From Xylanibacter ruminicola (GTDB taxonomy: Bacteria; Bacteroidota; Bacteroidia; Bacteroidales; Bacteroidaceae), in the NCBI GenBank assembly GCA_015060625.1, contig SUYC01000005.1:41270-105269 (forward strand): 64,000 bases of DNA. Reading direction: 5' to 3'. Below are positions 26,079 to 51,620 of the stretch, in pieces (the stretch's first letter is position 1; each line of letters begins with the position of its first letter). A program made the translations under genes and the position numbers. The notes beneath the pieces are model-generated. The model was not told the origin of the DNA, made no database searches, and saw only the letters and a program-made list of their open reading frames with translations.

Positions 26079-26714
26079 ATGAAGAATCTAATCCTTATAG
26101 GTGGTGGTGGTCACTGCAAGTCCGTTATGGATGCAGCTGAGAGTGCGGGTTACAGTATTTTTGGAGTGCTGGATGTAGCGGAGAATGTTGGCAAGGAAGT
26201 ACTCTCAACCAAGATTATAGGCACAGATGAAAACATTCCTGCTTACGTTGATAAGGCAGAGTTTGTTATCACTGTTGGTTTCATCAAGAATCCTGCAGTT
26301 CGTATCAAGCTATACAATAAGGTAAAGGAAGCTGGAGGAAAGTTCGCTACAATCATAGCTTCTACTGCATACGTTTCTAAATATGCAGAAATAGGCGAAG
26401 GTACGGTCGTTCTCCATCAGGCATTTGTGAATGCTGGTGCTAGGGTTGGTAAGAATGTCATATTGAATACTGCAACCAACATTGAGCATGATGCAGTTAT
26501 TGGCAATCACTGCCATATTTCTACAGGAACTATGGTAAATGGCGAGTGCAAGGTCGGCGAACGCTGCTTTATTGGAAGTCAGTCCGTTCTCGCCAACTGC
26601 ATTTCTGTTGGAGATGATATTATTGTGGGAGCTGGTTCTTTTGTCAGAAAGACAATTTCTGAAAAAGGTATCTACTCAGGTAATCCTGCTATTCTAAAAA
26701 TTAGGGCAAAATGA
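26079..26714 (+). CDS. neuD: NeuD/PglD-family sugar acetyltransferase
   Basis: LILIGGGGHCKSV, hexapeptide repeats, NTATNIEHD..IG.HCHISTG. Confidence 0.85.
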   Translation: MKNLILIGGGGHCKSVMDAAESAGYSIFGVLDVAENVGKEVLSTKIIGTDENIPAYVDKAEFVITVGFIKNPAVRIKLYNKVKEAGGKFATIIASTAYVSKYAEIGEGTVVLHQAFVNAGARVGKNVILNTATNIEHDAVIGNHCHISTGTMVNGECKVGERCFIGSQSVLANCISVGDDIIVGAGSFVRKTISEKGIYSGNPAILKIRAK

Positions 26715-28878: not shown

Positions 28879-29852
28879 AAATAATAGTTATTGGACTCGG
28901 CTCAATGGGTAAGCGCAGAATACGCCTACTGAGTGAGAATCAAGATATAGAGCTCTTTGGTATAGATAGCCAGGAGAGCCGTTGTGCGGAAGTGAAGGAG
29001 AAGTTTGGCCTGAAATGCTATGCTAGCATTGCTGAGGCTGTTGCAGCAGAACGACCCGATGCTGCTGTGATTAGTACATCTCCTCTTTCTCATTCTTCTA
29101 TCATCAAAGAATGCTTGCAGAACAACCTCCACGTATTCACAGAGATTAATCTGGTGGCAGATGGCTATGCAGAGAATATGGCATTGGCCAAGGAAAAAGG
29201 GAAAGTGCTGTTCCTTTCTTCAACGTTCCTGTATCGTAAAGAGACTCAGACCATCATTGAGAAGGCAAACAAGGCAACCTGCCCTCTGAACTATATCTAT
29301 CATATTGGTCAGTACCTGCCTGACTGGCATCCATGGGAGAGTTACAATAACTATTTTATTGGTAATCCCAGAACCAATGGTTGTCGTGAGATTATGGCCA
29401 TTGACCTGCCTTGGATAGTTACTGCCTTTGGACCTATCAAGAGTGTAAGTGCGGTAAAGAGCAAGAACACTCAGCTAAACATTAACTACAACGATAACTA
29501 CTTGATTACCATTGAACATGAGAATGGTAACAAGGGAGTTTTGGCTGCTGATGTGGTAACTCGTAAGTCCATCCGTCATATTGATGTATATGGTGAATCA
29601 TTCCAGATGTCTTGGAATGGTACAGCAGACTCTTTGCAGGAGTATAATGTTGAGACCAAGGAAATGCAGGCTATCCAGTTTGATGATGCTTCAGAACATG
29701 TGGAAGGTTATGCTGCATTTGTTACGGAAAATCCTTATCGCGAGGAACTGAATGCTTTCTTGGCTCAGATTGCCAACCCAAAGGCCGTTCCAGCTTGGAC
29801 TTTTGAGAAGGACTTTGAGTTGCTGAAGGTTATTGATCAGATTGAAGCATAA
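28875..29852 (+). CDS. Gfo/Idh/MocA-family oxidoreductase
   Basis: VIGLGSMGKRR, HVFTE, GQYLPDWHPWE. Confidence 0.88.
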   Translation: MKIIVIGLGSMGKRRIRLLSENQDIELFGIDSQESRCAEVKEKFGLKCYASIAEAVAAERPDAAVISTSPLSHSSIIKECLQNNLHVFTEINLVADGYAENMALAKEKGKVLFLSSTFLYRKETQTIIEKANKATCPLNYIYHIGQYLPDWHPWESYNNYFIGNPRTNGCREIMAIDLPWIVTAFGPIKSVSAVKSKNTQLNINYNDNYLITIEHENGNKGVLAADVVTRKSIRHIDVYGESFQMSWNGTADSLQEYNVETKEMQAIQFDDASEHVEGYAAFVTENPYREELNAFLAQIANPKAVPAWTFEKDFELLKVIDQIEA

Positions 29853-30802
29853 TGAAGAAATATAAGATAGCTTTTGTAGGACTTGGCTCCATTGCAACAC
29901 GTCACCTAAAGAATGTGCATGCTTATTTGGCATCACAGGGTGATTGTTGCGAGGTGGACTTATACCGCAGTTCTCTAGGTAGACCGTTGGCAGATGAGTT
30001 GCAGCCATTGGTAAGTAACGCTTACTTGTATGCTGATGAGATACCTGCAGACCGCCAGTATGATGTGGTTTTCGTAACCAATCCTACATCAATGCACTAT
30101 GAAACGGTTGAGCGGTTTGCTGCACATACCAAATCATTCTTCATAGAAAAGCCGGTATTTGACAGTTCGAAGGTTGACGAGAAGATATTTGATACCATCA
30201 AGGATATTCCTTCATACGTTGCCTGTCCGCTTCACTATAATGCCGTTCTGCAATATGTAAAGCAGCATGTGAATCCTGAAAATGTGATTTGTGCCAGAGC
30301 TATGTCTTCTAGTTATTTGCCTGACTGGAGACCTGGACAAGACTATCGCAATACCTATAGCGCTCATAAGAATTTGGGAGGTGGAGTAAGTATTGATCTC
30401 ATTCATGAATGGGATTATCTTACTTGGCTCTTTGGGATGCCTGCGGAATGCCACTCCATGATTAACAAGGTTTCCAATTTGGAAATTGATAGCGATGATT
30501 TGGCCATCTATATTGGCAAAAATGATAAGACAACCTTTGAACTTCATTTGGACTACTTTGGAAGACAAACACAACGTACGCTTGATCTGTTTACGGCAGA
30601 TGACACCATCCATTGTGATTTGATAGCTGGTACAGTAAGCTATTTGAAGAAAGGAGAAACCATTAAGCTGGAAAGTGAGCGTAATGCCTTCCAGATGGCT
30701 GAGATTGCACATTTCTTTGGGATAATAAACAATAAAACAATAAACGACAGCAACCCTGAACATGCTTACCAGGTGCTGAAAATAGCAAAAGGAGAATTCT
30801 AA
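29852..30802 (+). CDS. Gfo/Idh/MocA-family oxidoreductase
   Basis: FVGLGSIATRH, FFIEKP, SYLPDWRPGQDYR, GGGVSIDLIHEWDY. Confidence 0.9.
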   Translation: MKKYKIAFVGLGSIATRHLKNVHAYLASQGDCCEVDLYRSSLGRPLADELQPLVSNAYLYADEIPADRQYDVVFVTNPTSMHYETVERFAAHTKSFFIEKPVFDSSKVDEKIFDTIKDIPSYVACPLHYNAVLQYVKQHVNPENVICARAMSSSYLPDWRPGQDYRNTYSAHKNLGGGVSIDLIHEWDYLTWLFGMPAECHSMINKVSNLEIDSDDLAIYIGKNDKTTFELHLDYFGRQTQRTLDLFTADDTIHCDLIAGTVSYLKKGETIKLESERNAFQMAEIAHFFGIINNKTINDSNPEHAYQVLKIAKGEF

Positions 30803-30803
30803 T

Positions 30804-31574
30804 ATGAACATTCTGTTTACATTATGTGGTCGTGCGGGCTCCAAGGGAGTAAAAGGCAAGAATGCCCGAGACTTTCTGGATGTACCCCTAGTTTGGTATT
30901 CTATGGCCAACATTGCTCTGTATATGGAAAAATATGCAGGCGAGGATGATATCAAAATCGTGTTGAATACTGATAGCGAGCCATTGAAAGATTTGGTTAG
31001 ACGTGTAAAGGATGTGCCTGTAACTATCATCCATCGTGAAGAGAGTCTGGCTGGAGATAAGGTACCCAAGGTGGCTGTAATTCTGGATTCTCTGAACAAG
31101 GCAGAAGAGATTTTCGCTCAGAAGTTTGATATGGTGGTTGATTTGGATATAACTTCACCTTTACGTACCGTTCAGGATGTGAAGAATGCCATTGACCGCA
31201 AGAAGCAGAGAAATGATGTGGATGTGGTTTACAGTGTAGCACCATCCCGAAGAAATCCATATTTTAATATGGTAAAAGAGGATAACGGTTTCTTCTGTAA
31301 GGCCATTCCTTCCAACTTCACCACTCGTCAGGAAGCACCTGTATTCTATGACATGAACGCTTCTATCTATGCTTATTCACCTGACGCTTTAAGGAATAAG
31401 GAACATGCTACTTTCTTTAACTCTGGATGTGATGCTGTGGTAATGGCAGATACCGGTATTCTCGATATTGATTCAGAGGAAGATTATGAATTAATGCAGG
31501 TTATAGCTAAGTATCTGTTTGAGAATAATGAAGCGTTTAAAGAAACGTTTAACAAGGCTATAGGATGGAAATGA
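30804..31574 (+). CDS. neuA: Acylneuraminate (nonulosonate) cytidylyltransferase
   Basis: CGRAGSKGVKGKN, LDITSPLR, RQEAP..YDMNASIY, DIDSEED. Confidence 0.88.
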   Translation: MNILFTLCGRAGSKGVKGKNARDFLDVPLVWYSMANIALYMEKYAGEDDIKIVLNTDSEPLKDLVRRVKDVPVTIIHREESLAGDKVPKVAVILDSLNKAEEIFAQKFDMVVDLDITSPLRTVQDVKNAIDRKKQRNDVDVVYSVAPSRRNPYFNMVKEDNGFFCKAIPSNFTTRQEAPVFYDMNASIYAYSPDALRNKEHATFFNSGCDAVVMADTGILDIDSEEDYELMQVIAKYLFENNEAFKETFNKAIGWK

Positions 31575-38757: not shown

Positions 38758-40311
38758 ATGAGAGCAGTTTATGTATGTTGTATAGCAGATCCCTATATTG
38801 ATGTTGCTATACGGCTGAAAAAGGAAAAAGGTATAGAACCAATATATTGGATTAGCGATTTGGATTCTACACATGGCGACGTGGAAAATCTGGTAAAAAA
38901 AGAATTTCCAGAAATCACTTACCAGCGTTATTATGATGCATGGCACGGCGTATTTCCTAGGGAGATTGAGAATGCTTCTCATGAAGAGGGGATAGAAATA
39001 GATTTCCTAAAAAAGTTCTACAATGAGGAGTTACAGTCGTTGTCCATGATGGATAGAATGGATTATGACCGTAAGAGTTTCAATATGATGGAACGTGAGC
39101 GTTTTTTTCTGTCATTGGTTAGGAAATGGATGGCTTTTTTCAAATTGTATAAACCGGATATAGTTATAGCATCCAATAATCCCCATAGAGTTTTTGACCA
39201 TGTTCTTTATCTTGTGTGCAAATACAAAGGCATTCCTTATATTACCTCTATGTATACTCAGATGGTGGGAAGAATGTTCATGCTGGAGGATTTCCGCAAA
39301 CCAAACATCATAGGTGAGATAATGGATGAAGCTTATGCCCAGAATTTGGGAAAGGAAATAGATGTAACATTGCTACCAAGAGATATACAAGATAATTATA
39401 ATAGGCTTCATAAGGATTATAAGGATGCAAAACCCTATTATATGAACTCTTTTGATAAACTGAACTCCAAGAATAAAAACTATTTCTTCCTTATGCGTCG
39501 GTTTATATCTGATCACAACCTTCTCATTGGCGAAGACAAAATTCTTAAGGGGCAGAAACATACAATTTATAAAGAGGGGAAGCGAAGCCCAGAAGAATGG
39601 AACTTCTCACTCTGGGAATGGTATTCAATGAGAAAAGGGGCAGACAAATATAAGAAGTCTCTGTTTAATCATTACAACGCGATATCAGAAGAGGCACCGC
39701 TTGATGTACCATACGTGGCTTTCTTCCTGCACTATCAGCCCGAAGAAAACACCTGCCCCAATGCAGGCATGTTTGCCAACCAGTATCTGTGCATACTTTC
39801 CCTTCTGAGAAGCCTGCCTGATAATGTGATGATCTACGTGAAGGAGCATCCGCACCAGTTTATGTCACATATGCAAGGTCAGACAAAGAGAATCAAGGAA
39901 TTCTATGATGACTTGGCTGCAATCCCCAGGGTCAAGCTGATAAATTTCAGTATGGACTCCTTCTCGCTCATGGCCAATGCGATGGCAGTTGCAACTGTTG
40001 CGGGAACTGCCGGGTGGGAAGCTGCTGTGAAAGGGAAACCCGTTATTGTCTATGGTATGTCATGGTACGAACGTATGAAAGGTGTGATGAGAGTCACTGA
40101 CGATGAATCTGCGAAGCACGTCTATGAGTTCATTCAGAACTATAAGTTTGACAATCAGGCCGTGCTCGCCTATCTCTATACGTTTGCCCAAAAGTCCTAT
40201 ACAGGGTATAACTATAAGGGCTATAAGGAACTGACGGGATATTCCCACGAAGAGTCTGTTGAGAATATCTATAATGCATTAAATGCTGTAATTTTCAAGA
40301 ATAGCAAATGA
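38758..40311 (+). CDS. KpsS/LipB-like capsule biosynthesis glycosyltransferase
   Basis: FFLHYQPEE, YVKEHP, TVAGTAGWEA..KGKPVIVYG. Confidence 0.7.
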   Translation: MRAVYVCCIADPYIDVAIRLKKEKGIEPIYWISDLDSTHGDVENLVKKEFPEITYQRYYDAWHGVFPREIENASHEEGIEIDFLKKFYNEELQSLSMMDRMDYDRKSFNMMERERFFLSLVRKWMAFFKLYKPDIVIASNNPHRVFDHVLYLVCKYKGIPYITSMYTQMVGRMFMLEDFRKPNIIGEIMDEAYAQNLGKEIDVTLLPRDIQDNYNRLHKDYKDAKPYYMNSFDKLNSKNKNYFFLMRRFISDHNLLIGEDKILKGQKHTIYKEGKRSPEEWNFSLWEWYSMRKGADKYKKSLFNHYNAISEEAPLDVPYVAFFLHYQPEENTCPNAGMFANQYLCILSLLRSLPDNVMIYVKEHPHQFMSHMQGQTKRIKEFYDDLAAIPRVKLINFSMDSFSLMANAMAVATVAGTAGWEAAVKGKPVIVYGMSWYERMKGVMRVTDDESAKHVYEFIQNYKFDNQAVLAYLYTFAQKSYTGYNYKGYKELTGYSHEESVENIYNALNAVIFKNSK

Positions 40312-40940
40312 AGAATCTGATTATTATTGGTGCGGGCGGAATGGGCAGAACCGTCTACAGTAATGCACTCGAAAGTGTTGGCTATGGAGAATCTTATACT
40401 GTTAAGGGATTCATAGATGACAATCTAAATGCCTTGGATGGTTTTCCTAATTATCCGCCAATTATAGGCACCATCAAAGACTATATTCCACAAGAAAATG
40501 ACGTGTTTGTCTCTAGTATTGGGGGAGCTTCCCGTCGTCCGTGTATGGAAGAAATAATCAGTCGTGGAGGAGAGTTTATAGAGCTGATTCATAAGACAGC
40601 ACGAATCTATAAGAATGCCAAACTTGGAAAAGGAAACTTTATCGGCGCTTATTCCGTCATAGGCAATGATGCCGTGGTGGGTGACTACAATATGATACAG
40701 GCTTATTCTGTAATCGGACATGATGCTAAAATAGGCAGTTGGAATCGCATAGACACTCATGTGACTTGTGTGGGCGGTATTGTTATCGAAGACGAAGTGA
40801 ATATCCACACGTCAGCAGTCATCAATCATGGTGTGACAGTAGGCAGTAGTGCCCATGTCGGAGCATTGAGTTTTGTAATACGTAAGGTAAAGGCGGGAAC
40901 TACGGTAATGGGGAATCCTGCAAAAAAAATAGAAATATAA
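40308..40940 (+). CDS. NeuD/PglD-like acyltransferase
   Basis: LIIIGAGGMGR, hexapeptide repeats, VIGHDA.IG, MGNPAK. Confidence 0.85.
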   Translation: MKNLIIIGAGGMGRTVYSNALESVGYGESYTVKGFIDDNLNALDGFPNYPPIIGTIKDYIPQENDVFVSSIGGASRRPCMEEIISRGGEFIELIHKTARIYKNAKLGKGNFIGAYSVIGNDAVVGDYNMIQAYSVIGHDAKIGSWNRIDTHVTCVGGIVIEDEVNIHTSAVINHGVTVGSSAHVGALSFVIRKVKAGTTVMGNPAKKIEI

Positions 40941-40963
40941 TTTTAATTTTAAAATAGAATAAT

Positions 40964-41197
40964 ATGGAATTGAAAGATTTTATCCAGAATTTCGCAGAGC
41001 AGTTTGATGATACGCCTGCAAGTGAGTTTACAGCTGAAACTGTTTTTCATGAGTTAGATGAGTATTCATCGCTGATAGCACTGTCCATCATTTCGATGGT
41101 TGACGAAGAGTATGGGGTCATGCTTAGCGGTAATGAAATGAAGGCGGCTGTTACTATTGAAGATTTGTATAACACCGTAAAGAGTAAGGCAGAGTGA
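40964..41197 (+). CDS. Acyl carrier protein
   Basis: 77 aa, acidic, with phosphopantetheine Ser in EYSSLIAL. Confidence 0.85.
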   Translation: MELKDFIQNFAEQFDDTPASEFTAETVFHELDEYSSLIALSIISMVDEEYGVMLSGNEMKAAVTIEDLYNTVKSKAE

Positions 41198-41940
41198 TGT
41201 ATAATCCATTCTCATTGGAAGGAAAGAGCATTCTGATTACTGGTGCTGCTGGTGGCATTGGCCGTGCCATGGCCATCGAGTGTGCCAAGATGGGAGCAAG
41301 ACTTTTCCTGACGGATGTTGTAAAGGAAGGACTTGACGCAACGATAAGCCTGTTGGAAGGTGAAGGCCACAAAAGCATTGTGGCAGATCTGACCGATGAC
41401 GAGCAGCTTGACTCGCTGGTGTCAGCTCTTCCAGCCTTGGACGGCATGGTGAGCAATGCAGGTGTCACAAAGCCTGCTCCTGTGAAATTTATCAAGAAAG
41501 AGGATTTGCAGCGAATTGTTTCCATCAATGCAATGGCTCCAATCTGTCTCACCCAGAAACTGCTGAAGAAGAAAAAGTTCAATGACGGCGGCTCTTTGGT
41601 ATTTACCGTTTCTATAGGTGGCGTCTATACAACTGCACCTGGCAATGCTATGTATGGTGCATCGAAAGGTGCTCTTCAGGTGTTTGTCAAGAATGTGGCC
41701 TTGGAGATGGCTCCTAAACTGCGTTGCAACAGCATCAATCCAGGCATGGTGAATACTGGGCTGGTGAAGGGTGGTATCTACTCTGATGAAGACAAGGCGA
41801 AGGACCTTATGACTTATCCGCTAAAAAGGTATGGTGAACCAAGAGACATCGCACTGGCTGCGGTTTATCTGCTGTCTGACGCTTCGTCGTGGATGACAGG
41901 TCACTCTCTTATCATAGACGGTGGAAAAACGCTTTATTAA
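41197..41940 (+). CDS. FabG-like SDR oxidoreductase
   Basis: ITGAAGGIG, SNAG, YGASK, NSINPG. Confidence 0.9.
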   Translation: MYNPFSLEGKSILITGAAGGIGRAMAIECAKMGARLFLTDVVKEGLDATISLLEGEGHKSIVADLTDDEQLDSLVSALPALDGMVSNAGVTKPAPVKFIKKEDLQRIVSINAMAPICLTQKLLKKKKFNDGGSLVFTVSIGGVYTTAPGNAMYGASKGALQVFVKNVALEMAPKLRCNSINPGMVNTGLVKGGIYSDEDKAKDLMTYPLKRYGEPRDIALAAVYLLSDASSWMTGHSLIIDGGKTLY

Positions 41941-41948
41941 AAAAAGAC

Positions 41949-42674
41949 ATGTTATTAGAAAATAAAATTGCTATCGTGACAGGAGCTGGCCGAGGCATAG
42001 GTCGCGCTATCGCAGAGAAGTTTGCCAGCGAAGGTGCTATTGTCTATGCTGCAGATGTCCGTGAAGATGATTTGAAATGGACGGAGGAAAACACCTCTGT
42101 GCATAGCATTACTTTGGATATCTGTGACTTTGCAGCCGTTAAGAACGCTGTGATGGCCATTAAGAAGGAACATGGTCAGATAGATGTGCTCGTCAACAAC
42201 GCTGGACTTATCTCATACGAGATGATGAGCATGATAGACTATGACAAGTTTCGCAAAATGATTGAAGTGAACGTCGTAGCATTGATACACCTAATGCAGA
42301 TGGTGGCGAGAATTATGACACGCCGAAACGAAGGTTCTATCATCAACATGGCAAGTATGGTGGCAGTAAAAGGCGCTGCTGGCCAATTGTCGTATGCAGC
42401 AACGAAAGGTGCGGTCATCTCTGCTACCAAGTCGGCTGCGAAAGAGCTGGCCAACAATCATATCCGTGTGAATGCAATTGCTCCTGGTATGGTTGGGACA
42501 GAGAGGTTTAAGGCCGTCTTGAAAGAAAAATTTAGTCAAAAAATCAATGACATACCCTTTGGTCGCTTGGCAGAACCAGAGGATATAGCCAATGCTGCAC
42601 TCTATCTGGCTTCCGATATGTCATGTTACGTGACAGGTCAGGTGTTGGGTGTGGATGGTGCTGCTGTCATCTAA
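41949..42674 (+). CDS. FabG-like SDR oxidoreductase
   Basis: VTGAGRGIG, VNNAG, YAATK, NAIAPG. Confidence 0.9.
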   Translation: MLLENKIAIVTGAGRGIGRAIAEKFASEGAIVYAADVREDDLKWTEENTSVHSITLDICDFAAVKNAVMAIKKEHGQIDVLVNNAGLISYEMMSMIDYDKFRKMIEVNVVALIHLMQMVARIMTRRNEGSIINMASMVAVKGAAGQLSYAATKGAVISATKSAAKELANNHIRVNAIAPGMVGTERFKAVLKEKFSQKINDIPFGRLAEPEDIANAALYLASDMSCYVTGQVLGVDGAAVI

Positions 42675-42686
42675 AAAACAATAGTT

Positions 42687-43757
42687 ATGGCTTTATTTAC
42701 AATTAAGAACGTAAAAATCAAGGGTGTTTCAGCCGCTGTACCTGAGACAAAAGTATCTACATACGATTACGACTTCTTCAGTAAGGAAGATGCGGATACA
42801 TTCATCAAGACTGTAGGAATCGAAAATAGGTATGTGGCTCAGAATGGAGAATGTGCTTCTGACCTGTGTAAGTTAGCGGCCGACAAACTGATTGAAGGCT
42901 TAGGCTGGGAGAGAGAGAGTATTGGTATTCTTTCTTTTGAGTCTGTTACGGCAGATTATCGCACTCCGCCAACCTCATGCATCTTGCAGGATAGGCTTGG
43001 ACTGAGTACTGACTGTATGACCTTCGATCTGCCTATGGGATGCTGCGGTTTTCTCTATTCTGTGTGTGTAGTAGGAAAGATGATGCAGACAGGCGACGTG
43101 AACCGTGCTATTTTGCTGATAGGAGATACTATCACAAGGATGGGTTCGCCAAAGGATAAAAGCAGACTTCCCTTGTTTGGTGATTGCGGTACGGCTGTAG
43201 CCTTGGAGTATGACGAGAGTGCAGATGACATTATCATTGACATGAACTCATATGGTAAGGGTTTTGAGGCTCTGATTACACCGCACAGCGGTTTCCGCCA
43301 TCAGGTGACACCAGAGTCCTTTGAGTATGAGGACTTCGGCAACGGAGTGGTTCGTGCCCCGGTACACTCGCTAATTCAGGGCATGGACGTGTTTGCCTTT
43401 GCTATCTCCAGACCACCAAAGTCTATTAAGGCTCTGTTTGAGAAGTATGGTATCGACAAGGAAAAGGATATAGATTACTTCCTTATTCATCAGGCCAATA
43501 AACTGATTGTCGATAAGGTGGTGAAGAAATCTGGTCTTGACCTTGCTAAGACACCATCCAACATCAAGAATTTTGCAAACTTAGGTGGGGCATCTATCCC
43601 TATGCTGATGGTGTCGGAGATTGCAGATGACCTGAAGGGTAAGAAACTGAGTCTGATGGCTTCCGCTTTTGGCCTTGGTCTGACATGGGGTACGATGCTT
43701 TTCAAGACAGAGAATCTTATCGTACCAGAATTAGCTTTCTATAACAAGGAGGATTAA
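42687..43757 (+). CDS. 3-oxoacyl-ACP synthase III (FabH-like)
   Basis: Cys-His-Asn triad: MGCCGFLY, IHQAN, FANLGGASIP. Confidence 0.9.
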   Translation: MALFTIKNVKIKGVSAAVPETKVSTYDYDFFSKEDADTFIKTVGIENRYVAQNGECASDLCKLAADKLIEGLGWERESIGILSFESVTADYRTPPTSCILQDRLGLSTDCMTFDLPMGCCGFLYSVCVVGKMMQTGDVNRAILLIGDTITRMGSPKDKSRLPLFGDCGTAVALEYDESADDIIIDMNSYGKGFEALITPHSGFRHQVTPESFEYEDFGNGVVRAPVHSLIQGMDVFAFAISRPPKSIKALFEKYGIDKEKDIDYFLIHQANKLIVDKVVKKSGLDLAKTPSNIKNFANLGGASIPMLMVSEIADDLKGKKLSLMASAFGLGLTWGTMLFKTENLIVPELAFYNKED

Positions 43758-43761
43758 GCGT

Positions 43762-45141
43762 ATGTTTCTGGATTTAGACAAAAAGGACAAAACTGCAGTC
43801 GCTGTCATTGATGATAGTGGCCAGTCTATTACCTACGGCGATATTTGTGACTTCTCCAAAAAGTTCCACGAATATCTGCCGATACGTGCGCTGATATTCA
43901 TCCTTTCTGAAAACAGAATAGGCTCGCTATTGGGATATACCTCTGCACTGAGTAACAGAATTGTACCGTTGATTCTGAGTGCTAAGACAGAGAAAGGACT
44001 CTATGAAAATTTGCGGGATATGTATAAGCCTGAATATCTCTGGTTGCCCAATGAAATGGTGGAGGATATGGGGTATGAGACAATATTCTCTGATTTTGGT
44101 TATACATTAGTAAAGACTGGAAATCCTGCTGCGGCCATGTACGAAGATTTGTCTCTATTACTGCCTACGTCAGGCTCTACAGGTAGTCCAAAATTGGTTC
44201 GCCATTCATATCGCAATATTGAGGCAAACGCCTTTAATGTGTTGAGGATGTTTGGTCTGACACCATCGGAGAAGGCTATGGCTATACTGCCGATGCACTA
44301 TACGATGGGCCTTTCCGTGATAGCATCGCATCTTTTGGCAGGCGCGACATTGCTTCTTTCAGGAAGGTCGCTGCTCGACAAAGGCTTCTGGGATATGTTG
44401 AAGGAGGCAACCAGCTTTACAGGTGTTCCCTACAGCTATGAGATCCTGATGAAGATGCGCTTCACCCGTATGGACTTGCCGAATCTGAAGATTATTACAC
44501 AAGGTGGCGGAAAACTGACAGAGGAAATGTTTCAGGCTCTTGCTAAATATGCGCAGGAGAAGGGAAAACAGTTTATTCCTACCTATGGTCAGTCAGAATG
44601 TACTGCACGTATGGCATACCTGCCTGCCGAGCTTGCACTCACTAAGACCTGTAGTATCGGTATGGCAGAGCCAGGTGGTCAGTTGTCTATCATTGATAAC
44701 GACGGGAATGAAACCTTCGAGGGTGTGGCACAAGGCGAAATGGTGTATCGAGGCGAGAATGTAACCCTTGGATATGCCTATAGCATAGATGATTTGCAAA
44801 AAGGTGATGAAAACCATGGCGTAATGCATACAGGTGATCTTGCAAAACGAGATGCAGATGGGTGCTATTACATTGTAGGCAGGCTGAAACGCTTCCTGAA
44901 AATCTTCGGACTCAGGATTGGACTTGACGAGATAGAAGGTCTTATCAAAGAGAGATACGACATCGACTGTTACTGTAAGGGCGATGACGAAAAGCTTATT
45001 GTACTGATTACAAAGGCTGATCTTTCTGATGAGATCATATCATTTATAGAAGAAAAGACACATTTGTTCCATAAGAATATTGAGGTTCAAATCGTGGATG
45101 CTATCCTAAGGAATGAAGCAGGTAAAGTAATTAATCAATAA
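43762..45141 (+). CDS. AMP-binding (adenylate-forming) acyl/aminoacyl ligase
   Basis: TSGSTGSPK, YGQSE, HTGDL, GRLKR...G.RI. Confidence 0.9.
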   Translation: MFLDLDKKDKTAVAVIDDSGQSITYGDICDFSKKFHEYLPIRALIFILSENRIGSLLGYTSALSNRIVPLILSAKTEKGLYENLRDMYKPEYLWLPNEMVEDMGYETIFSDFGYTLVKTGNPAAAMYEDLSLLLPTSGSTGSPKLVRHSYRNIEANAFNVLRMFGLTPSEKAMAILPMHYTMGLSVIASHLLAGATLLLSGRSLLDKGFWDMLKEATSFTGVPYSYEILMKMRFTRMDLPNLKIITQGGGKLTEEMFQALAKYAQEKGKQFIPTYGQSECTARMAYLPAELALTKTCSIGMAEPGGQLSIIDNDGNETFEGVAQGEMVYRGENVTLGYAYSIDDLQKGDENHGVMHTGDLAKRDADGCYYIVGRLKRFLKIFGLRIGLDEIEGLIKERYDIDCYCKGDDEKLIVLITKADLSDEIISFIEEKTHLFHKNIEVQIVDAILRNEAGKVINQ

Positions 45142-45148
45142 AAAGAAT

Positions 45149-45388
45149 ATGACAAATTTGGAAAAATTGAATAACATCTTTGCAGAGGTGTTTAATGTAG
45201 AAGTGTCTGCTCTGAATGCAGATTTTGATAACAAAAGTGTTGAAGGATGGGACAGCGTTCATCAGCTTAGTCTGACAAGTGCTGTCGAGGATGAGTTTGA
45301 CATCATGCTTGATGGTGAGGATATTCTGGGATTTACCTCATACGAGAATGCCAAGGAAATCCTAAAGAAGTATGAAATATCTCTTTAG
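45149..45388 (+). CDS. Second acyl/aminoacyl carrier protein
   Basis: 79 aa with WDSVHQL phosphopantetheine motif. Confidence 0.85.
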   Translation: MTNLEKLNNIFAEVFNVEVSALNADFDNKSVEGWDSVHQLSLTSAVEDEFDIMLDGEDILGFTSYENAKEILKKYEISL

Positions 45389-45444
45389 AGTAAGATTCAT
45401 ATTATTAAGTTGATTACTCCAGATTATTAACCGTATTTTTTATT

Positions 45445-45876
45445 ATGAATTTGAGATCATATTTATGGAAGAAACTTGTAAGGTTCTATCCATGGTATCT
45501 GCGTCGTGTTTATAAAATGGATATAGGAAAGGACGTGTGGGTTTCATGGAAAGCACATCTTGATAAGTCCATAAATCCTCGTGGAATACATATTGGGGAT
45601 AGAACGATTATCGCAAATGGGGCAATGATATTATCACATGATATGTGCCGACGATTAAAAGTGAACACAACAATAGGTAATGATTGTCTCATAGGTGCAA
45701 GATCAATAATTCTTCCCGGAGTGACCATTGGTGATTCGTCTTTAGTAGCTGCGGGGGGGGTAGTTTCTAAAGATGTTCCACCAAATTGTGTCGTGGCAGG
45801 TAACCCTGCTAAAATTGTAAAAACTGGTGTTGTTCTTAAAAAAGGCATTATCATTGAGGCAGGACAAAAGGTATAA
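45445..45876 (+). CDS. Hexapeptide-repeat (LbH) acyltransferase
   Basis: TTIGNDCLIGARSIILPGVTIGDSSLVAAGGVV..DVP...VVAGNPAK. Contains a G8 tract at 45753-45760. Confidence 0.88.
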   Translation: MNLRSYLWKKLVRFYPWYLRRVYKMDIGKDVWVSWKAHLDKSINPRGIHIGDRTIIANGAMILSHDMCRRLKVNTTIGNDCLIGARSIILPGVTIGDSSLVAAGGVVSKDVPPNCVVAGNPAKIVKTGVVLKKGIIIEAGQKV

Positions 45877-45923: not shown

Positions 45924-46925
45924 ATGATTATGAACAAGATACAATTGATGGGGGGGGTACGAATAGATGCCATAGATATTCTCAAATTCTTAGCAGCCCT
46001 TCTTATTACAAACAGTCACATGAATGGACTGTATCCGCCAAAATTTGAGGCATTAGCAACAGGTGGCGCTTTAGGAGACTCATGTTTCTTTTTTTGTTCT
46101 GGCTTCCTTTTGATACAAAGCCGAGGTGGTGATTTTTTCAATTGGTATAAAAGGAGGGTGAACAGAATCTTCCCGACGTTGTTTGCTATAGCTATTGTAT
46201 CCATCGTGGCTTTCGGTAAGAATCCAGCGTTCAAATCTGTAATCCTATCAGAAAATGCTTGGTTTGTACAAGCCATATTGGTTTTCTATGCCGCATTTTG
46301 GTTCGTAAAACGTTTCCTTTCGGACAAGATGTGGGGAGTAATAACTGCAGTGGGCATAATAAGTCTGATATGGTTCGCTTTCTTTTGGGACAAAAGTGTA
46401 TCGGTTTTCATGGTCGGAACCTATCTGCGTTGGCCATTGTTTTTTTGTGTAATGTTAATAGGTGCTATTACAGCGAAGAATTATCGTCAGGGCATTCAGC
46501 ACAAACTGATGATTTCGTTTTTATTCTTCATACTTTTGATGGGCTTGTTCTATGGATATCAAATCTTGGAGAAGAAAAAAATGATGCTATGCAATTATGA
46601 AATTGTGATAGCTCCCATTCTGTTCTTGGCAGTATATGAGTTGTTCTGGATTTGTTCAAATGAAAGAGTAGTATCTTTTTACCGCAAGAAAGGCATTTAT
46701 GCAGTAGTGTTTTTCATCTCATCATTGTGCTTTGAGATTTACTTGTCACAACATTATCTGTTTCCTATAGGGAAAAGCCTGATTAGACTATTCCCGCTGA
46801 ATATCATTATTTGTTTTGTATTGATAGTCGGTGTGGCTTATATAGTAAAGGTTTTGGGCAACTTTATCAGCCAAACATTTAAGTCGGATAATTACGAATG
46901 GAAGAAAATGGTGAAAATACCCTAA
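45924..46925 (+). CDS. Acyltransferase family 3 membrane O-acyltransferase
   Basis: RIDAIDILKF, FFFCSGF, FEIYLSQ, many TMs. In-frame G8 tract at 45950-45957. Confidence 0.8.
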   Translation: MIMNKIQLMGGVRIDAIDILKFLAALLITNSHMNGLYPPKFEALATGGALGDSCFFFCSGFLLIQSRGGDFFNWYKRRVNRIFPTLFAIAIVSIVAFGKNPAFKSVILSENAWFVQAILVFYAAFWFVKRFLSDKMWGVITAVGIISLIWFAFFWDKSVSVFMVGTYLRWPLFFCVMLIGAITAKNYRQGIQHKLMISFLFFILLMGLFYGYQILEKKKMMLCNYEIVIAPILFLAVYELFWICSNERVVSFYRKKGIYAVVFFISSLCFEIYLSQHYLFPIGKSLIRLFPLNIIICFVLIVGVAYIVKVLGNFISQTFKSDNYEWKKMVKIP

Positions 46926-46945
46926 TTGTAAAAAATAGTAGAGTT

Positions 46946-47560
46946 ATGTATAAACACTTTTTTAAGCGGTTTCTGGATTTCTGGATTTCGTTGATAGCAT
47001 TAATCGTCATATCGCCTATCTTATTAGTGGTGACGATATGGCTGCACTTTGCAAATAAAGGAGCAGGGGCTTTTTTCTTTCAAGAAAGGCCAGGTAGGGA
47101 TGCTAAGATATTCAAAGTGATTAAGTTCAAGACGATGACGGATGAGCGTGGAGCTGACGGACAACTGTTGCCTGATGCACAAAGATTAACAAAGGTCGGA
47201 AAGTTTGTACGCTCTTCATCTTTGGATGAATTACCGCAACTAATCAACGTGTTGAAGGGTGACATGGCTCTTATTGGACCTCGTCCCCTGTTAGTACAAT
47301 ATCTGCCCCTTTATTCAAAAGAGCAGGCTCGTCGCCATGAAGTCCGTCCTGGTATAAGTGGTTGGGCACAGTGTCATGGCAGAAATACCATAAGCTGGAC
47401 AGAAAAGTTCAAATTGGATGTGTGGTATGTTGACCATGTTTCTCTTTGGACTGACATGAAGGTTATTTGGATAACTATTATGAAAGTTCTGAGAAGGGCG
47501 GATGTTAACACTGAGTCGGGTCAATCAGCTACAATGGAGTTGTTTACAGGAATCAACTAA
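46946..47560 (+). CDS. PglC-like initiating phosphoglycosyl transferase
   Basis: KRFLD, FFFQERPG, KFKTM, RSSSLDELPQLINVLKGDMALIGPRP, VRPGISGWAQ. Confidence 0.92.
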   Translation: MYKHFFKRFLDFWISLIALIVISPILLVVTIWLHFANKGAGAFFFQERPGRDAKIFKVIKFKTMTDERGADGQLLPDAQRLTKVGKFVRSSSLDELPQLINVLKGDMALIGPRPLLVQYLPLYSKEQARRHEVRPGISGWAQCHGRNTISWTEKFKLDVWYVDHVSLWTDMKVIWITIMKVLRRADVNTESGQSATMELFTGIN

Positions 47561-47561
47561 T

Positions 47562-49777: not shown

Positions 49778-49778
49778 C

Positions 49779-50411: not shown

Positions 50412-51620
50412 ATGTTCAATTTAGACAAGTTTATAAGCGATTCGGTCACATACAGACTGGAGAGCATGTTTAAGGGTGACATCGAGGCAAATGCTGAGAA
50501 GCTCACTCTGGAGATTAAGGGTAAGAAGGTATGTGTGATTGGTGGTGCTGGCTCTATCGGTTCCAGCTTCATCAAGGCGGTGCTGCGGTTTGAGCCGGCA
50601 TCAGTGGTGGTGGTTGACCTGAACGAGAATGGGTTGGCAGAGCTGGTGCGCGATGTGCGCTCAACGAACGGACTGTATGTGCCTGATGAGTTCCGCTGCT
50701 ACACGCTGAACTTTGCTGACCCCATCTTTGAGCGCATCTTCCGTGAGGAGAAGGGATTTGATATTGTGGCGAACTTCTCAGCACACAAGCATGTGCGTTC
50801 GGAGAAAGACCGCTATAGCGTACAAGCGTTGATAGAGAACAATGACATCAAGGCGAAGAAGCTGATGGATTTGTTGACGGTATATCCACCGAAGCACTTC
50901 TTCTGCGTTTCGACGGATAAGGCAGCCAACCCTGTGAACATCATGGGCGCCTCGAAGCGCATCATGGAGGACTTGGTGATGGCGTATAATAAATATTTTA
51001 AGGTGACTACAGCTCGCTTTGCGAATGTGGCATTCAGTAACGGTTCGCTGCCTGACGGATGGATTCATCGCTTGCAGAAGAAGCAGCCGCTGGCTGCACC
51101 AAGTGACGTGAAGCGTTACTTCGTTAGCCCTGAGGAAAGCGGTCAGATTTGTATGCTGGCTTGTATCTTGGGTAATGGGGGAGAGGTGTTCTTCCCGAAG
51201 TTGGGTGAAGACCAGATGTTGACGTTCTCTTCGATTTGCGACAAGTTCGTGACTGCTAATGGGCTGGAGAAAGATCCTTGCTCTTCGGATGATGAGGCCA
51301 AGCGCAAGGCTGCTGCACTGGGATGGGATGACAACAAGTATCCTACGGTGTACTTCGGTTCGGACACGACAGGTGAAAAGGCTTACGAGGAGTTCTATGT
51401 GCCTGGTGAGAAGATTGACATGCAGCGCTTCGCAGCTCTGGGCGTGGTCTGCCAGACCACTCGCCATGAAATGGCAGAGGTGAATGGATTCTTTGATAAA
51501 CTGGAGGATATCTTTGCTAAAGAGAACTTCACCAAGGCTCAGGTGGTAGAGGCGATCAAGGAGTTTATCCCGAATTTCGAGCATGAAGAGAAAGGGAAGA
51601 ATCTGGATCAGAAAATGTAA
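50412..51620 (+). CDS. NDP-GlcNAc 4,6-dehydratase (polysaccharide biosynthesis protein, PglF/LegB role)
   Basis: GGAGSIG, SAHKHVRSEKD, VSTDKAANP, MGASK, RFANVAFSNGSL. Confidence 0.82.
   Translation: MFNLDKFISDSVTYRLESMFKGDIEANAEKLTLEIKGKKVCVIGGAGSIGSSFIKAVLRFEPASVVVVDLNENGLAELVRDVRSTNGLYVPDEFRCYTLNFADPIFERIFREEKGFDIVANFSAHKHVRSEKDRYSVQALIENNDIKAKKLMDLLTVYPPKHFFCVSTDKAANPVNIMGASKRIMEDLVMAYNKYFKVTTARFANVAFSNGSLPDGWIHRLQKKQPLAAPSDVKRYFVSPEESGQICMLACILGNGGEVFFPKLGEDQMLTFSSICDKFVTANGLEKDPCSSDDEAKRKAAALGWDDNKYPTVYFGSDTTGEKAYEEFYVPGEKIDMQRFAALGVVCQTTRHEMAEVNGFFDKLEDIFAKENFTKAQVVEAIKEFIPNFEHEEKGKNLDQKM

Follow-up and report, generated by a model that had tools for sequence, protein, structure and literature searches.

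Gene content of the block and its surroundings

The window analyzed here, a 64,000-nucleotide stretch of Xylanibacter ruminicola DNA, contains a Bacteroidales capsule locus in which a legionaminic-acid-type pathway is also encoded. According to the ORF listing, eight closely packed ORFs are located on the plus strand at positions 40308-45876 in the following order: PglD/NeuD-type acyltransferase (M1), ACP1, SDR1, SDR2, KAS III, adenylating enzyme (M6), ACP2, and a small LbH acyltransferase (M8) (Table 1). The block is placed in a co-directional capsule operon, with glycosyltransferases on one side and the initiating transferase on the other. Minus-strand ORFs in this region are merely 62-142 aa long and are nested in the plus-strand genes. 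An earlier sequence-only reading had described the same eight ORFs and domains, in agreement with the ORF coordinates and profile matches; the tight coupling that it noted is confirmed by 4-nt overlaps (40308/40311 and 41194/41197) and intergenic gaps of 4-23 nt, except for 56 nt upstream of the last gene (45445).

Table 1. Positions and profile matches of the block, its neighbor, and the sugar-pathway genes of the window
Feature	Length	Position	Strand	Profile match
DegT aminotransferase (LegC family), only one in locus		23709..24965	+	DegT_DnrJ_EryC1, 299 bits
Legionaminic-acid-type block		26079..31574	+	TIGR03570 194.9, TIGR03569 514.7, TIGR03568 485.8 bits, CTP_transf_3
KpsS-like Capsule_synth protein	517 aa	38758..40311	+	PF05159, 47.7 bits
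M1, PglD/NeuD/VioB-family N-acyltransferase	210 aa	40308..40940	+	PglD_N + Hexapep
ACP1	77 aa	40964..41197	+	PP-binding, 22 bits
SDR1	248 aa	41194..41940	+	adh_short_C2, 168 bits
SDR2, FabG-like	241 aa	41949..42674	+	adh_short_C2, 199 bits
KAS III	356 aa	42687..43757	+	ACP_syn_III + ACP_syn_III_C
M6, short ANL-superfamily adenylating enzyme	459 aa	43762..45141	+	AMP-binding, 123 bits
ACP2	79 aa	45149..45388	+	PP-binding, 23 bits
M8, small LbH acyltransferase	143 aa	45445..45876	+	Hexapep
PglC-type initiating phosphoglycosyl transferase (PGT), small		46898..47560	+	Bac_transf, 204 bits
NDP-HexNAc 4,6-dehydratase-type gene, only one in locus		50412..51620	+	Polysacc_synt_2, 129 bits

M1 matches the NeuD/PglB/VioB family TIGR03570 with 151.6 bits, slightly below the 160.8 cut-off, and its best solved relatives are VioB (7txp, E 2.9e-18), the PglB acetyltransferase (4m98), and WeeI (4m9c). 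The protein contains a GHD motif with the presumed catalytic His and is 68% identical to its Parabacteroides distasonis counterpart and 31% identical to the second PglD-type gene product of the window (26079). M8 matches maltose/WcaF-type O-acetyltransferase models weakly. In ACP1, the Ser of the E-[YW]-S-S-L motif is invariant (29/29 homologues), as is the W-D-S motif in ACP2 (27/27).

SDR1 shows TGxxxGIG and YxxxK motifs; among solved structures it is closest to glucose 1-dehydrogenase and FabG (about 116-122 bits). The ORF of SDR2 opens at a GTG codon (41889), the probable start being ATG 41949; it matches FabG models with 199-226 bits, all under their cut-offs, and its best solved relative is FabG 4nbu (174 bits). 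Since neither protein reaches a FabG equivalog cut-off, the previous label FabG-FabG, apt insofar as two SDRs are present and the second is clearly FabG-like, is better replaced by "two SDRs". KAS III scores 163-193 bits with beta-ketoacyl-ACP synthase III models, under their cut-offs (best solved relative 4efi, 196 bits); its Cys119, His268, and Asn298 are invariant in all 35 homologues.

The M6 family is large, with 2961 clusters at 50% identity (E<1e-30), and no solved relative of M6 above 91 bits was found, the best being an oxalate-CoA ligase with this score. Motifs A3 (TSGSTGSPK), A5 (TYGQSE), A7 (HTGD), A8 (GRxKRFLKxxGxRI), and A10 (GK) are invariant among 23 sequences. The A4 position is occupied by His instead of Asp (LPMHYTMGL) in 22 of the 23; in amino-acid-activating enzymes this position presumably binds the alpha-amino group, so the substrate of M6 is more likely a non-amino carboxylic acid. 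This residue, together with the absence of a condensation domain in the block, speaks against the NRPS-like or DltA-like loading of amino acids suggested earlier.

Conservation of the block and its two parts

Related rumen loci were retrieved via M6 alone. The core of ACP1, SDR1, SDR2, M6, ACP2, and KAS III is syntenic in all 25 full-length loci, which come from different rumen Bacteroidales genomes, and in two loci of the cultured species P. distasonis; judging from these sequences, the gene arrangement is far beyond chance, and the block is genuine and widespread. The core was also found in L040, a relative with 41% identity, and the catalytic residues are intact throughout the homologues examined.

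As for the flanking acyltransferases, 14 of 27 related loci have a PglD-type gene immediately 5' of ACP1; in approximately half of the loci no such gene adjoins ACP1, and its place is taken by other LbH or GNAT-like genes. The terminal LbH gene, counted as a block member in the sequence-only reading, is not conserved: a close counterpart of M8 (77% identity) was found in L002 only, LbH genes of the same cluster but more distant lie next to the module in L003, L009, L010, and L023, and in about seven loci the module is flanked by another LbH type (c8). The membership of M8 in the block is uncertain, although the fusion protein P0231 (see below), which contains an M8-like LbH, speaks for it. The enzyme may be a plain O-acetyltransferase, or it may take the acyl from a carrier and so act as a second outlet.

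The comparison of loci suggests that the core is divided into a starter unit (SDR2, M6, and ACP2) and an extension unit (ACP1, SDR1, and KAS III), as indicated by the agreement of SDR type with position, natural fusions, and reduced variants of the cassette. The SDR located directly 5' of the adenylating enzyme is of the SDR2 type in every locus, and that beside ACP1 or KAS3' is always of the SDR1 type. ACP2 adjoins M6 in almost every locus (in L003 one short ORF lies between them), and natural fusion proteins such as P0147, P0231, and P0261 join an ACP2-type domain to an M6-type enzyme, some of them also containing an LbH or GNAT-like domain. In addition, a Ponticoccus ACP-SDR-AMP cluster without KAS III combines an SDR2-type SDR (44% vs 36%) with an ACP2-type carrier. 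The neighbor of ACP1 is always an SDR1-type reductase or a second KAS III, stand-alone ACP1-KAS III-SDR1 mini-modules without an adenylating enzyme are present in L003, L018, and L024, and the only SDR of a one-SDR P. distasonis variant is of the SDR1 type (44% vs 33% identity). We propose that SDR2 modifies the ACP2-bound starter and belongs with M6 and ACP2, ACP2 being the starter carrier cognate to M6. The joint action of both SDRs on one intermediate, as previously assumed, does not fit the pairing of SDR2 with M6 and ACP2 and of SDR1 with ACP1 and KAS III.

The same block could also consist of two independent acylation units placed side by side, which we consider rather unlikely. The first (M1, ACP1, SDR1, SDR2, and KAS III) would be of the Flavobacterium psychrophilum type, forming a 3-hydroxyacyl from an acyl-CoA primer and malonyl-ACP1 and N-acylating an amino sugar; the second (M6, ACP2, and M8) would be an RfbK/L/O- or Dlt-like trio, in which M8 moves the ACP2-loaded acid directly to another glycan position. 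The contiguity of M6, ACP2, and M8 in the window and the existence of the mini-modules agree with this arrangement. Moreover, P0231, a fusion of an M8-like LbH (34% identity), an ACP2-type domain, and an M6-type enzyme, comes from a polysaccharide locus in which 7.8 kb contain neither a KAS III nor an SDR gene, P0261 is similar, and a Metabacillus M6 homologue (42% identity) with an ACP lies beside an MBOAT gene without KAS III. Such LbH-ACP2-AMP fusions suggest that ACP2-bound acids may be transferred straight to a glycan without KAS III, which counts against a single line.

However, in 22 of 25 related loci the gene immediately after ACP2 is that of KAS III (L001 and L002 are like the window in that it precedes the adenylating enzyme), and ACP1, SDR1, and KAS III accompany M6 in every one of the loci retrieved with it alone. 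Many related loci (L001, L008, L013, and L015) contain no M8- or c8-type LbH nearby, and the close M8 counterpart is confined to a single locus. In the P. distasonis loci L029 and L030, both carriers are present, and one PglD-type enzyme is the sole transferase annotated beside the module, according to the PLSDB gene table, which is incomplete; this would point to one line rather than two units.

Predicted pathway and acceptor sugar

The reading that we prefer, with about an even chance of being right, is that the block encodes a carrier-primed, single-extension "mini-FAS" supplying a short hydroxylated acyl for N-acylation of a capsule amino sugar. Comparative genomics favors the order already suggested by the sequence-only reading, from the adenylating enzyme and its carrier through KAS III and SDR to LbH transfer to an amino sugar. 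The sequences themselves show the gene content, the intact catalytic residues, the synteny, the fusions, and the way in which the components pair; we infer every chemical step, and likewise the starter, the direction in which SDR2 works, the use of acyl-ACP (not acyl-CoA) as the M1 donor, and the acceptor.

M6, as the proposed acid:ACP2 ligase, would activate a free non-amino carboxylic acid and load it onto ACP2 as the starter, and SDR2 would then modify the bound starter, most simply converting an oxo group to a hydroxyl. KAS III is the proposed decarboxylating condensing enzyme, which would join the ACP2-bound starter once with malonyl-ACP1. KAS III enzymes are classically primed by acyl-CoA, so priming from ACP is an assumption. 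Neither FabD nor a phosphopantetheinyl transferase is encoded in the block; malonyl supply and carrier phosphopantetheinylation would be provided by the housekeeping enzymes. SDR1, the proposed 3-oxoacyl-ACP1 reductase, would reduce the 3-oxo group, ACP1 being the proposed carrier of both extender and product. The conserved cassette contains no dehydratase, enoyl reductase, or elongating KAS I/II; with the first two absent, the hydroxyls would be kept. The predicted product is a 3-hydroxy- or 3,5-dihydroxy-alkanoyl longer than the starter by two carbons. With low confidence, 3,5-dihydroxyhexanoyl or 3,5-dihydroxypentanoyl can be suggested, and a known group such as 3,5-dihydroxyhexanoyl suits the enzyme set equally well as the undescribed acyl group expected previously.

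A single line with other roles of its enzymes seems quite unlikely. M6 would then supply the extender or a dicarboxylate (malonate, or malonyl-CoA via its free carboxylate like MupQ), either SDR2 would reduce a thioester as MupS does or KAS III would act for two rounds, and the starter would be acetyl-CoA or 3-hydroxypropionyl and not an exogenous oxo-acid. In mupirocin biosynthesis, 3-hydroxypropionyl-MacpD is indeed made from malonyl-CoA by an adenylating enzyme and an SDR (PMC10098928), the weak best matches of M6 include oxalate-CoA ligases and malonyl-CoA synthetases, and the missing FabD gene is consistent with such roles. Nevertheless, these dicarboxylate-ligase scores barely exceed those of luciferases (91 vs 83 bits), ACP1-type carriers occur in mini-modules without an adenylating enzyme, and the one-SDR variant retains the SDR1 and not the SDR2 type. 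If the extender were on ACP2, the product would stay there, and ACP1, beside the final transferase, would be left without a role.

In the preferred mini-FAS pathway, M1 is proposed to be the final transferase, which would take the acyl off ACP1 and attach it to the C4 amine of an NDP-4-amino-4,6-dideoxy-hexose. We infer this acceptor from the M1 relatives VioB, PglB, and WeeI and from L029, a complete locus in which the cassette is 68-72% identical to that of the window and is accompanied by genes of the dTDP-4-amino-6-deoxyhexose pathway (RfbA, dTDP-glucose 4,6-dehydratase, and DegT). In the window, the only visible source of the amine would be the single dehydratase (50412) with the single LegC-type aminotransferase (23709). 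The latter, which matches the LegC family TIGR04181 with 341 bits (under the 420 cut-off), is probably the source of the 4-amino sugar acylated by M1. The dehydratase is 76-88% identical to those encoded beside the module in L004, L005, L007, L016, L021, and L026, where they adjoin DegT and nucleotidyltransferase genes.

One aminotransferase is shared by the two PglD-type genes of the locus (40308 and 26079), so more than one fate of the acylated sugar is possible. As an N4-acyl bacillosamine-type residue it could go straight to the PglC-type transferase, a possible user; in L015, a PGT 77% identical to this transferase is encoded immediately upstream of the PglD-type gene. Alternatively, it may enter the legionaminic-type block, which comprises the second PglD/NeuD-type gene, NeuB/LegI, a hydrolysing 2-epimerase, two GFO oxidoreductases, and a cytidylyltransferase; the 2-epimerase, NeuB, and the cytidylyltransferase would yield Leg5Ac7acyl, with the acyl on N7. 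Of the nonulosonate positions N5/N7 named in the sequence-only reading, N5 is unlikely, as it derives from the GlcNAc acetamido group. The nonulosonate is a possible target here but not a required one: no nonulosonate gene is annotated in L029 (three of its genes are listed as hypothetical only, in a PLSDB table that is incomplete), and NeuB was not found within 10 kb in most related loci. The cassette thus seemingly does not need nonulosonate genes in other genomes.

It is very improbable that the module makes a lipid or lipid anchor (a hydroxy-fatty acyl for a glycolipid primer, or an aryl-polyene/flexirubin-like product) and no capsule decoration. FAS-like genes are present, and the KpsS-like gene adjoins the block, overlapping the start of M1 by 4 nt; its homologues adjoin the module in L001, L007, L019, and L021. 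Enzymes of the KpsS type make a lipid-linked primer in group 2 capsules. After the A. baumannii KpsS1-type naming, we take this protein to be possibly a nonulosonate transferase. However, long chains cannot be made without the missing dehydratase, enoyl reductase, and elongating KAS I/II, the block lies inside the capsule operon, the flanking transferases are of sugar-nucleotide N-acyltransferase types, and the L029 cassette goes with a dTDP-amino-sugar pathway.

Comparison with known systems

Gene sets of this kind have been predicted before in other polysaccharide loci, and the block is one of their variants. In F. psychrophilum, the PglD homologue WfpG is predicted to use the locus-specific ACP WfpD (PMC6519341). 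This precedent, rated as established in the sequence-only reading, is real but is itself a prediction.

In mupirocin biosynthesis, MupQ, MupS, and MacpD make the 3-hydroxypropionyl-MacpD starter, and the KS, malonyl-MacpA, and the KR MupD were shown in vitro to give 3,5-dihydroxypentanoyl-MacpA (PMC10098928). The six functions of the mupirocin cassette and its use of two carriers are those predicted for the block described here.

The acyl cassette and its conservation

The block at window positions 40308-45876 consists of eight plus-strand ORFs that overlap or are separated by very short gaps; the minus-strand ORFs of the same interval are short and nested within the plus-strand genes. The ORFs and their Pfam and NCBIfam domains bear out the block in which the sequence-only reading had seen a miniature two-carrier FAS/NRPS-like assembly line, and the outline of that reading was largely right. 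Two PP-binding carriers and a KAS III-type condensing enzyme are encoded within a glycan locus. The genes of the block and of its surroundings are listed in the table.

Features of the acyl cassette, the capsule locus and its flanks (window positions)
Feature	Position	Strand	Size	Annotation and remarks
AbiEi/AbiEii pair	16356-17968			Antitoxin and nucleotidyltransferase toxin
ATPase gene	18486-19733	+		AAA_15/AAA_21
ORF	19742-20332		196 aa	No family match
ATPase gene	20898-21974	-		AAA_15/AAA_21
NusG/UpxY-like gene	22465			First in locus order
LegC-family aminotransferase (DegT)	23709			TIGR04181, 341 bits (below cut-off); followed by an Acyl_transf_3 gene
Second PglD/NeuD-type transferase	26079-26714			TIGR03570, 194.9 bits; followed by NeuB/LegI (TIGR03569, 514.7 bits), hydrolysing 2-epimerase (TIGR03568, 485.8 bits), two GFO oxidoreductases, cytidylyltransferase (CTP_transf_3) and nucleotidyltransferase
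Nitroreductase-family protein	32623-33627		334 aa	Within the capsule operon, between the nucleotidyltransferase and the probable flippase
Flippase (probable), pyruvyl transferase, Wzy, GT1				Next in locus order
KpsS-like gene	overlaps M1 start			Capsule_synth
M1	40308-40940	+	210 aa	PglD_N and hexapeptide acyltransferase, NeuD/PglB/VioB family (Pfam, NCBIfam)
ACP1	40964-41197	+	77 aa	PP-binding protein (Pfam, NCBIfam)
SDR1	41194-41940	+	248 aa	Short-chain dehydrogenase/reductase (Pfam, NCBIfam)
SDR2	41949 (probable start)-42674	+	241 aa	Short-chain dehydrogenase/reductase, FabG-like
KAS III	42687-43757	+	356 aa	Beta-ketoacyl-ACP synthase III type, ACP_syn_III domains
M6	43762-45141	+	459 aa	AMP-binding (ANL) enzyme, 123 bits
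ACP2	45149-45388	+	79 aa	PP-binding protein
M8	45445-45876	+	143 aa	Small hexapeptide acyltransferase
Second Acyl_transf_3 gene	3' of the block			Precedes the initiating transferase
PglC-type initiating transferase	46898			Small
Three genes without clear role	47502-50366			387-aa protein without family match; NTP_transf_5 "uncharacterised nucleotidyltransferase"; metallo-beta-lactamase-fold protein; between initiating transferase and dehydratase
Dehydratase	50412			Polysacc_synt_2; followed by a cupin gene
IS200-like gene	52265-53041			Y1 transposase
GH2 beta-galactosidase	53137-56238			Follows the IS200-like gene

The catalytic residues of the carriers and the condensing enzyme are invariant. 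The KAS III triad Cys119/His268/Asn298 was found in 35/35 homologues, the phosphopantetheine-attachment Ser of ACP1 in 29/29, and the Asp-Ser of ACP2, which includes the attachment Ser, in 27/27. The highest scores against the FabG equivalog models were 142 bits for SDR1 and 226 bits for SDR2, so neither passes the NCBIfam cut-offs (296-333 bits). Despite this score, SDR2 is clearly FabG-like (best solved relative 4nbu, 174 bits), and SDR1 is a more generic SDR. No dehydratase, enoyl reductase or elongating KS was found in the cassette, which suggests that the chain is short and that its hydroxyls are kept; an aryl-polyene or lipid reading was rejected, as both a dehydratase and an elongating KS are missing.

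A homologue search with M6 alone, using one genome per species, yielded 26 loci (25 of them full-length), all from rumen Bacteroidales/Prevotellaceae genomes and with 68-86% identity. ACP1, SDR1, SDR2, M6, ACP2 and KAS III are present and co-linear in 25/25 full-length loci. The usual gene order is ACP1-SDR1-SDR2-M6-ACP2-KAS III, with KAS III placed 5' of M6 in the window and in the loci L001 and L002. The cassette is also annotated in the cultured Parabacteroides distasonis TSDC17.2-1.1 (M6 72% and M1 68% identical) and was found in a 41%-identity relative. The M6 family has more than 7,800 database matches, the best 120 of which are all at least 78% identical, and forms 2961 clusters at 50% identity (E < 1e-30). 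The cassette is a genuine and conserved feature, and a very frequent one among Bacteroidales of the gut and rumen. A cluster look-up returned no informative protein names among eight close homologues. The contexts of the M6 relatives P0133 and P0137 were set aside, since their contigs are too short to inform.

Other genes recur beside the cassette in the rumen loci. In L006 and L014 (also in L005), a MaoC-type hydratase is encoded together with HpcH/CitE-like lyases (one or two), and a small LbH gene often comes next; this trio looks like another, acyl-CoA-based decoration module. ATP-grasp ligases adjoin the cassette in L016, L017, L019 and L021 (upstream of ACP1) and in L004, L005 and L026, usually together with a DegT aminotransferase, and many further ATP-grasp-like genes are present in the related loci; they suggest amide-linked amino-acid decorations in the same capsules. 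A 154-aa protein without a Pfam match is encoded directly 5' of ACP1 in L016, L017 and L019.

Proposed starter and extension sub-units

The partners of each carrier and reductase point to two sub-units within the cassette, a starter sub-unit (SDR2, M6, ACP2) and an extension sub-unit (ACP1, SDR1, KAS III). The SDR directly upstream of the adenylating enzyme M6 is always of the SDR2 type, and the SDR adjoining ACP1 is always of the SDR1 type. ACP2 and M6 are neighbours in nearly all loci, and ACP2-type domains are fused to M6-family enzymes in three independent natural fusions, P0147 (ACP, weak GNAT-like and AMP-binding domains) and P0231 and P0261 (LbH, ACP and AMP-binding domains); loading of a carrier rather than of CoA is predicted. 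In a Ponticoccus ACP-SDR-AMP-LuxE...LuxC cluster without KAS III, the carrier is ACP2-type and the SDR is SDR2-type. Stand-alone mini-modules of ACP1-type carrier, KAS III and SDR1-type reductase without an adenylating enzyme were found in L003, L018 and L024, and a second KAS III lies between ACP1 and SDR1 in five loci (L004, L006, L011, L020 and L021). The one-SDR variant of P. distasonis retains the SDR1 type, and the two sub-units are physically apart in L002. The roles proposed earlier for the two SDRs, both as reductases of the extended chain, therefore need correction, SDR2 pairing with M6/ACP2 and SDR1 with ACP1/KAS III. The two SDR types and the two ACP types, now generically named, can be distinguished by these partners.

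The core motifs of M6, namely TSGSTGSPK (A3), TYGQSE (A5), HTGD (A7), GRxKRFLKxxGxRI (A8) and GK (A10 Lys), are invariant in 23 sequences, and the A4 position is His (LPMHYTMGL) in 22/23. We take LPMHYTMGL to correspond to the FDxS motif from a reading of the motifs by eye, not from a computed alignment to DltA or PheA. In amino-acid-activating enzymes, the A4 Asp binds the alpha-amino group of the substrate; since M6 has His at this position, its starter is probably not an alpha-amino acid. The NRPS and amino-acid flavour of the sequence-only reading was accordingly dropped: no condensation domain was found in the eight proteins or their neighbours, and His stands where amino-acid enzymes have Asp. 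No close characterised relative of M6 was found among solved structures (best match 91 bits), and a substrate assignment from the matches to oxalate and malonate ligases was rejected as too weak (91 bits at best).

Several M6 relatives have other architectures. Fusions with LuxC/LuxE were found in P0173, P0182 and P0270. On Rhizobium and Rhodococcus plasmids (L027, L032), the M6-family domain forms the N-terminal half of proteins of ~870 aa; as such fusions have unrelated neighbourhoods, they were set aside as guides to context. In Leisingera, the tblastn match to M6 also covers a gene annotated as "acyltransferase family protein".

Each chemical step of the following scheme is conditional. 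M6 would load a free acid onto ACP2, and SDR2 would modify the ACP2-bound acid. KAS III would then catalyse one condensation of this starter with malonyl-ACP1, SDR1 would reduce the 3-oxo group, and M1 would move the product onto a sugar amine. In KAS III chemistry, the product stays on the carrier of the extender; a product held on ACP1 would therefore fit the position of ACP1 next to M1. If SDR2 acts as a ketoreductase and the starter is a 3-oxo acid, the scheme would lead to a 3,5-dihydroxyalkanoyl group, a class already known from Flavobacterium psychrophilum (PMC6519341).

The last gene, M8, had been counted as a member of the block, and this was not upheld. A close counterpart (77%) of this small LbH acyltransferase was found in L002 only, whereas other loci contain distant members of its LbH cluster, a different type of LbH or no LbH, and by profile M8 resembles generic O-acetyltransferases. 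In favour of membership, the fusion protein P0231, encoded in a simple polysaccharide locus, combines an M8-like LbH with an ACP2-type domain and an M6-type enzyme, which shows that an M8-type LbH is able to function together with M6/ACP2. A second outlet is thus a possible role of M8, and this fusion is the main support for the view that the cassette comprises two independent units. A single line is nevertheless favoured from the gene content of the related loci, because the P. distasonis loci L029/L030 carry both carriers while one PglD-type enzyme is the only transferase annotated beside the module (in an incomplete PLSDB gene table), and because many rumen loci have no second LbH.

Capsule locus and predicted acceptor sugar

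The block lies inside a co-directional Bacteroidales-type capsule locus. All genes expected for the legionaminic acid pathway were found in it (NeuB/LegI, 2-epimerase, LegC-type aminotransferase, PglD/NeuD-type transferase, cytidylyltransferase and dehydratase), the dehydratase being ~25 kb away from the others. The pathway appears to be legionaminic-acid-type, with a sequence fit that does not discriminate between Leg and another nonulosonate. The locus encodes one DegT aminotransferase and one 4,6-dehydratase versus two PglD/NeuD-type transferases, which share only 31% identity. The NTP_transf_5 gene was also found after the transferase in L001 and L009.

The G+C content is 34-40% across 32-40 kb versus 48-52% in the flanks, and the IS200-like gene directly follows the last capsule gene; both are consistent with a variable region that is exchanged horizontally. 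The AbiEi/AbiEii pair, a type IV toxin-antitoxin or abortive-infection system, lies upstream of the capsule locus at a distance of a few kb. Between this pair and the UpxY-like gene lie the two AAA_15/AAA_21 ATPase genes and, in the same interval, the 196-aa ORF; the ATPase region may be a defence island adjoining the capsule locus.

The nearest solved relatives of M1 are VioB, PglB and WeeI, which are N-acetyltransferases of sugar-nucleotide 4-amines. A PglD-type gene is located directly 5' of ACP1 in 14/27 related loci; in the window, M1 likewise adjoins ACP1, and the DegT aminotransferase and the dehydratase provide a 4-amino-sugar pathway. The LegC-type aminotransferase with the single dehydratase is the sole visible source of a 4-amine in the window. 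The L029 record of P. distasonis spans the region from a tyrosine autokinase to an initiating sugar transferase and encodes RfbA, dTDP-glucose 4,6-dehydratase and DegT; it contains no annotated nonulosonate gene, three of its genes being annotated just as hypothetical. This gene content suggests that the cassette acylates a 4-amino-6-deoxyhexose as such and would not require a nonulosonate pathway. The DegT proteins of P. distasonis and of the window share only 28% identity, and an attempt to deduce the acceptor from the aminotransferase was rejected as uninformative.

The acylated sugar could be converted by the 2-epimerase and NeuB to a 7-N-acyl legionaminic-type acid, or it could serve as a direct substrate of the PglC-type transferase; the two fates are about equally likely. 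In support of a nonulosonate link, the module is directly flanked by KpsS-like genes in the window, L001, L007, L019 and L021 and has Leg-type neighbours in L004, L005, L007, L016, L019, L021 and L026, and the gene for the M6/ACP fusion P0147 is part of a set of pseudaminic-acid-type genes. Against a requirement for nonulosonates, the initiating transferase of L015 is directly beside the PglD-type gene, and NeuB was not seen within 10 kb in most loci. The earlier proposal of N5 or N7 of the nonulosonate as the acylation site was narrowed by these data: the nonulosonate route is possible in the window, given the KpsS-like and Leg-type neighbours, but is not required, as L029 indicates, and N5 is unlikely because its nitrogen derives from GlcNAc.

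P0147 (L035-L037) is a 780-aa protein. Its gene is accompanied by those for PseB-like, DegT, aldo-keto reductase, SDR, cytidylyltransferase, LbH, NeuB and MptE-like proteins, and it is a candidate for carrier-dependent N-acylation of a nonulosonate precursor.

Bacteroidales capsules shape phage susceptibility, immune recognition and gut colonisation, and, to our knowledge, almost none of their structures have been determined. In its fullest form, the model describes a widespread class of carrier-primed mini-FAS in capsule loci of gut and rumen Bacteroidales, with an acyl-ACP-dependent PglD-family transferase and, in the window, a new hydroxylated acyl group on N7 of a legionaminic-acid-type sugar, the starter, the SDR stereotype and a second KAS III varying the capsules; taken together, this is improbable enough to be offered as a speculation. 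We know of no demonstration of acyl-ACP-dependent activity for the PglD family so far. If the scheme set out for the cassette holds, it would account for non-acetyl N-acyl decorations made by these bacteria, provide the first biochemical case of a dedicated ACP feeding a PglD-type enzyme, and describe a compact adenylation/ACP/KAS III system for short polyhydroxy acyl groups. Both the nature of the acyl group and the position at which it ends up can be tested directly. The easiest choice for this is the cultured P. distasonis TSDC17.2-1.1, whose 68-72% identical cassette in a simpler locus makes it a tractable test system.

Comparison with known systems

A polysaccharide-locus acyl module is in itself of a known kind; the carrier-primed design with two ACPs and two distinct SDRs is new. 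In the literature searched, neither a two-carrier cassette nor ACP/adenylation-dependent N-acylation of nonulosonic acids was found described, and such absence is not proof. Shewanella sfmABCDE, considered as a precedent, is not a close analogue: besides a PseI-like protein and an SDR, it encodes a methyltransferase and an ATP-grasp enzyme. The term "acyl carrier" does not occur in the paper on it, which, as far as consulted, describes no condensing enzyme.

In the DltA/DltC system, too, a polymer of the cell surface is decorated by way of a small dedicated carrier that is charged by an adenylating enzyme. The similarity of M6 to DltA is weak (58-60 bits to solved structures and ~80 bits to models with cut-offs of 476-560 bits), DltB and DltD are absent from the window, and the A4 His of M6 differs from the alpha-amino-binding Asp; the Dlt system was rejected on these grounds. 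A Dlt-like operon with an M6-family enzyme in place of DltA was found on the Metabacillus plasmid pB218 (L028), where a homologue of M6 (42% identity) is encoded together with an ACP, an MBOAT O-acyltransferase and a hypothetical protein.

The tetronate genes wbeK-wbeO (rfbK-O) of Vibrio cholerae O1 encode an ACP, the ligase WbeL, an alcohol dehydrogenase, a LuxC/LuxE-like protein and an acetyltransferase that acylate perosamine, and they use LuxC/LuxE-type reduction instead of KAS III. By description, this O-antigen locus shares with the window an adenylating enzyme of the same unusually short length class, a carrier dedicated to it and an LbH transferase. Its product, a short, hydroxylated N-acyl substituent of a 4-amino sugar, is of the kind predicted for the window. 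Further likeness was noted within the M6 family, in the LuxC/LuxE fusions and the Ponticoccus cluster. The window contains neither LuxC/LuxE nor an iron alcohol dehydrogenase, whereas a KAS III, present in the window, is not known from wbe. WbeL is a 471-aa ligase required for the O1 antigen (PMC3441752).

Closest in kind, by described gene functions, is wfpC-wfpG of the F. psychrophilum O-antigen, with two KAS, an ACP, a ketoreductase and a PglD homologue and with predicted transfer of 3,5-dihydroxyhexanoyl to UDP-Qui2NAc4N (PMC6519341). In both systems, a polysaccharide locus of a Bacteroidota member encodes an ACP of its own along with KAS III-type enzyme(s), an SDR ketoreductase and a PglD-family transferase; both lack a dehydratase and an enoyl reductase, so that hydroxyls would be retained, and the predicted acceptor is a 4-amino-4,6-dideoxy sugar nucleotide. 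The rumen loci with a second KAS III and the mini-modules without an adenylating enzyme are closer still to wfp than the window is. The wfp set, whose assignment is a prediction and not biochemistry, has one ACP and no adenylating enzyme. The window has one KAS III only, but in addition an adenylating enzyme, another carrier and another SDR that is distinct from the first.

The closest proven mechanism, when matched by described function, appears to be the priming and first extension of 9-hydroxynonanoate in mupirocin biosynthesis, which involves MupQ (adenylating), MacpD, MupS (reductase), the KS MmpF, MacpA and the KR MupD (PMC10098928). In vitro, MupQ, MupS and MacpD give a 3-hydroxypropionyl starter, and the KS with malonyl-MacpA and MupD gives 3,5-dihydroxypentanoyl-MacpA (PMC10098928). 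The same six functions can be recognised in the window: an adenylating enzyme, a starter ACP and an SDR, followed by a condensing enzyme, a second ACP and a ketoreductase. The condensing enzyme is a KS-AT (KAS I-like) in mupirocin versus KAS III in the window, and the mupirocin product is extended further and esterified to the polyketide rather than amide-linked to a sugar. The two-carrier logic ending in a 3,5-dihydroxyacyl-ACP, demonstrated in vitro for mupirocin, would be the same in the capsule cassette.
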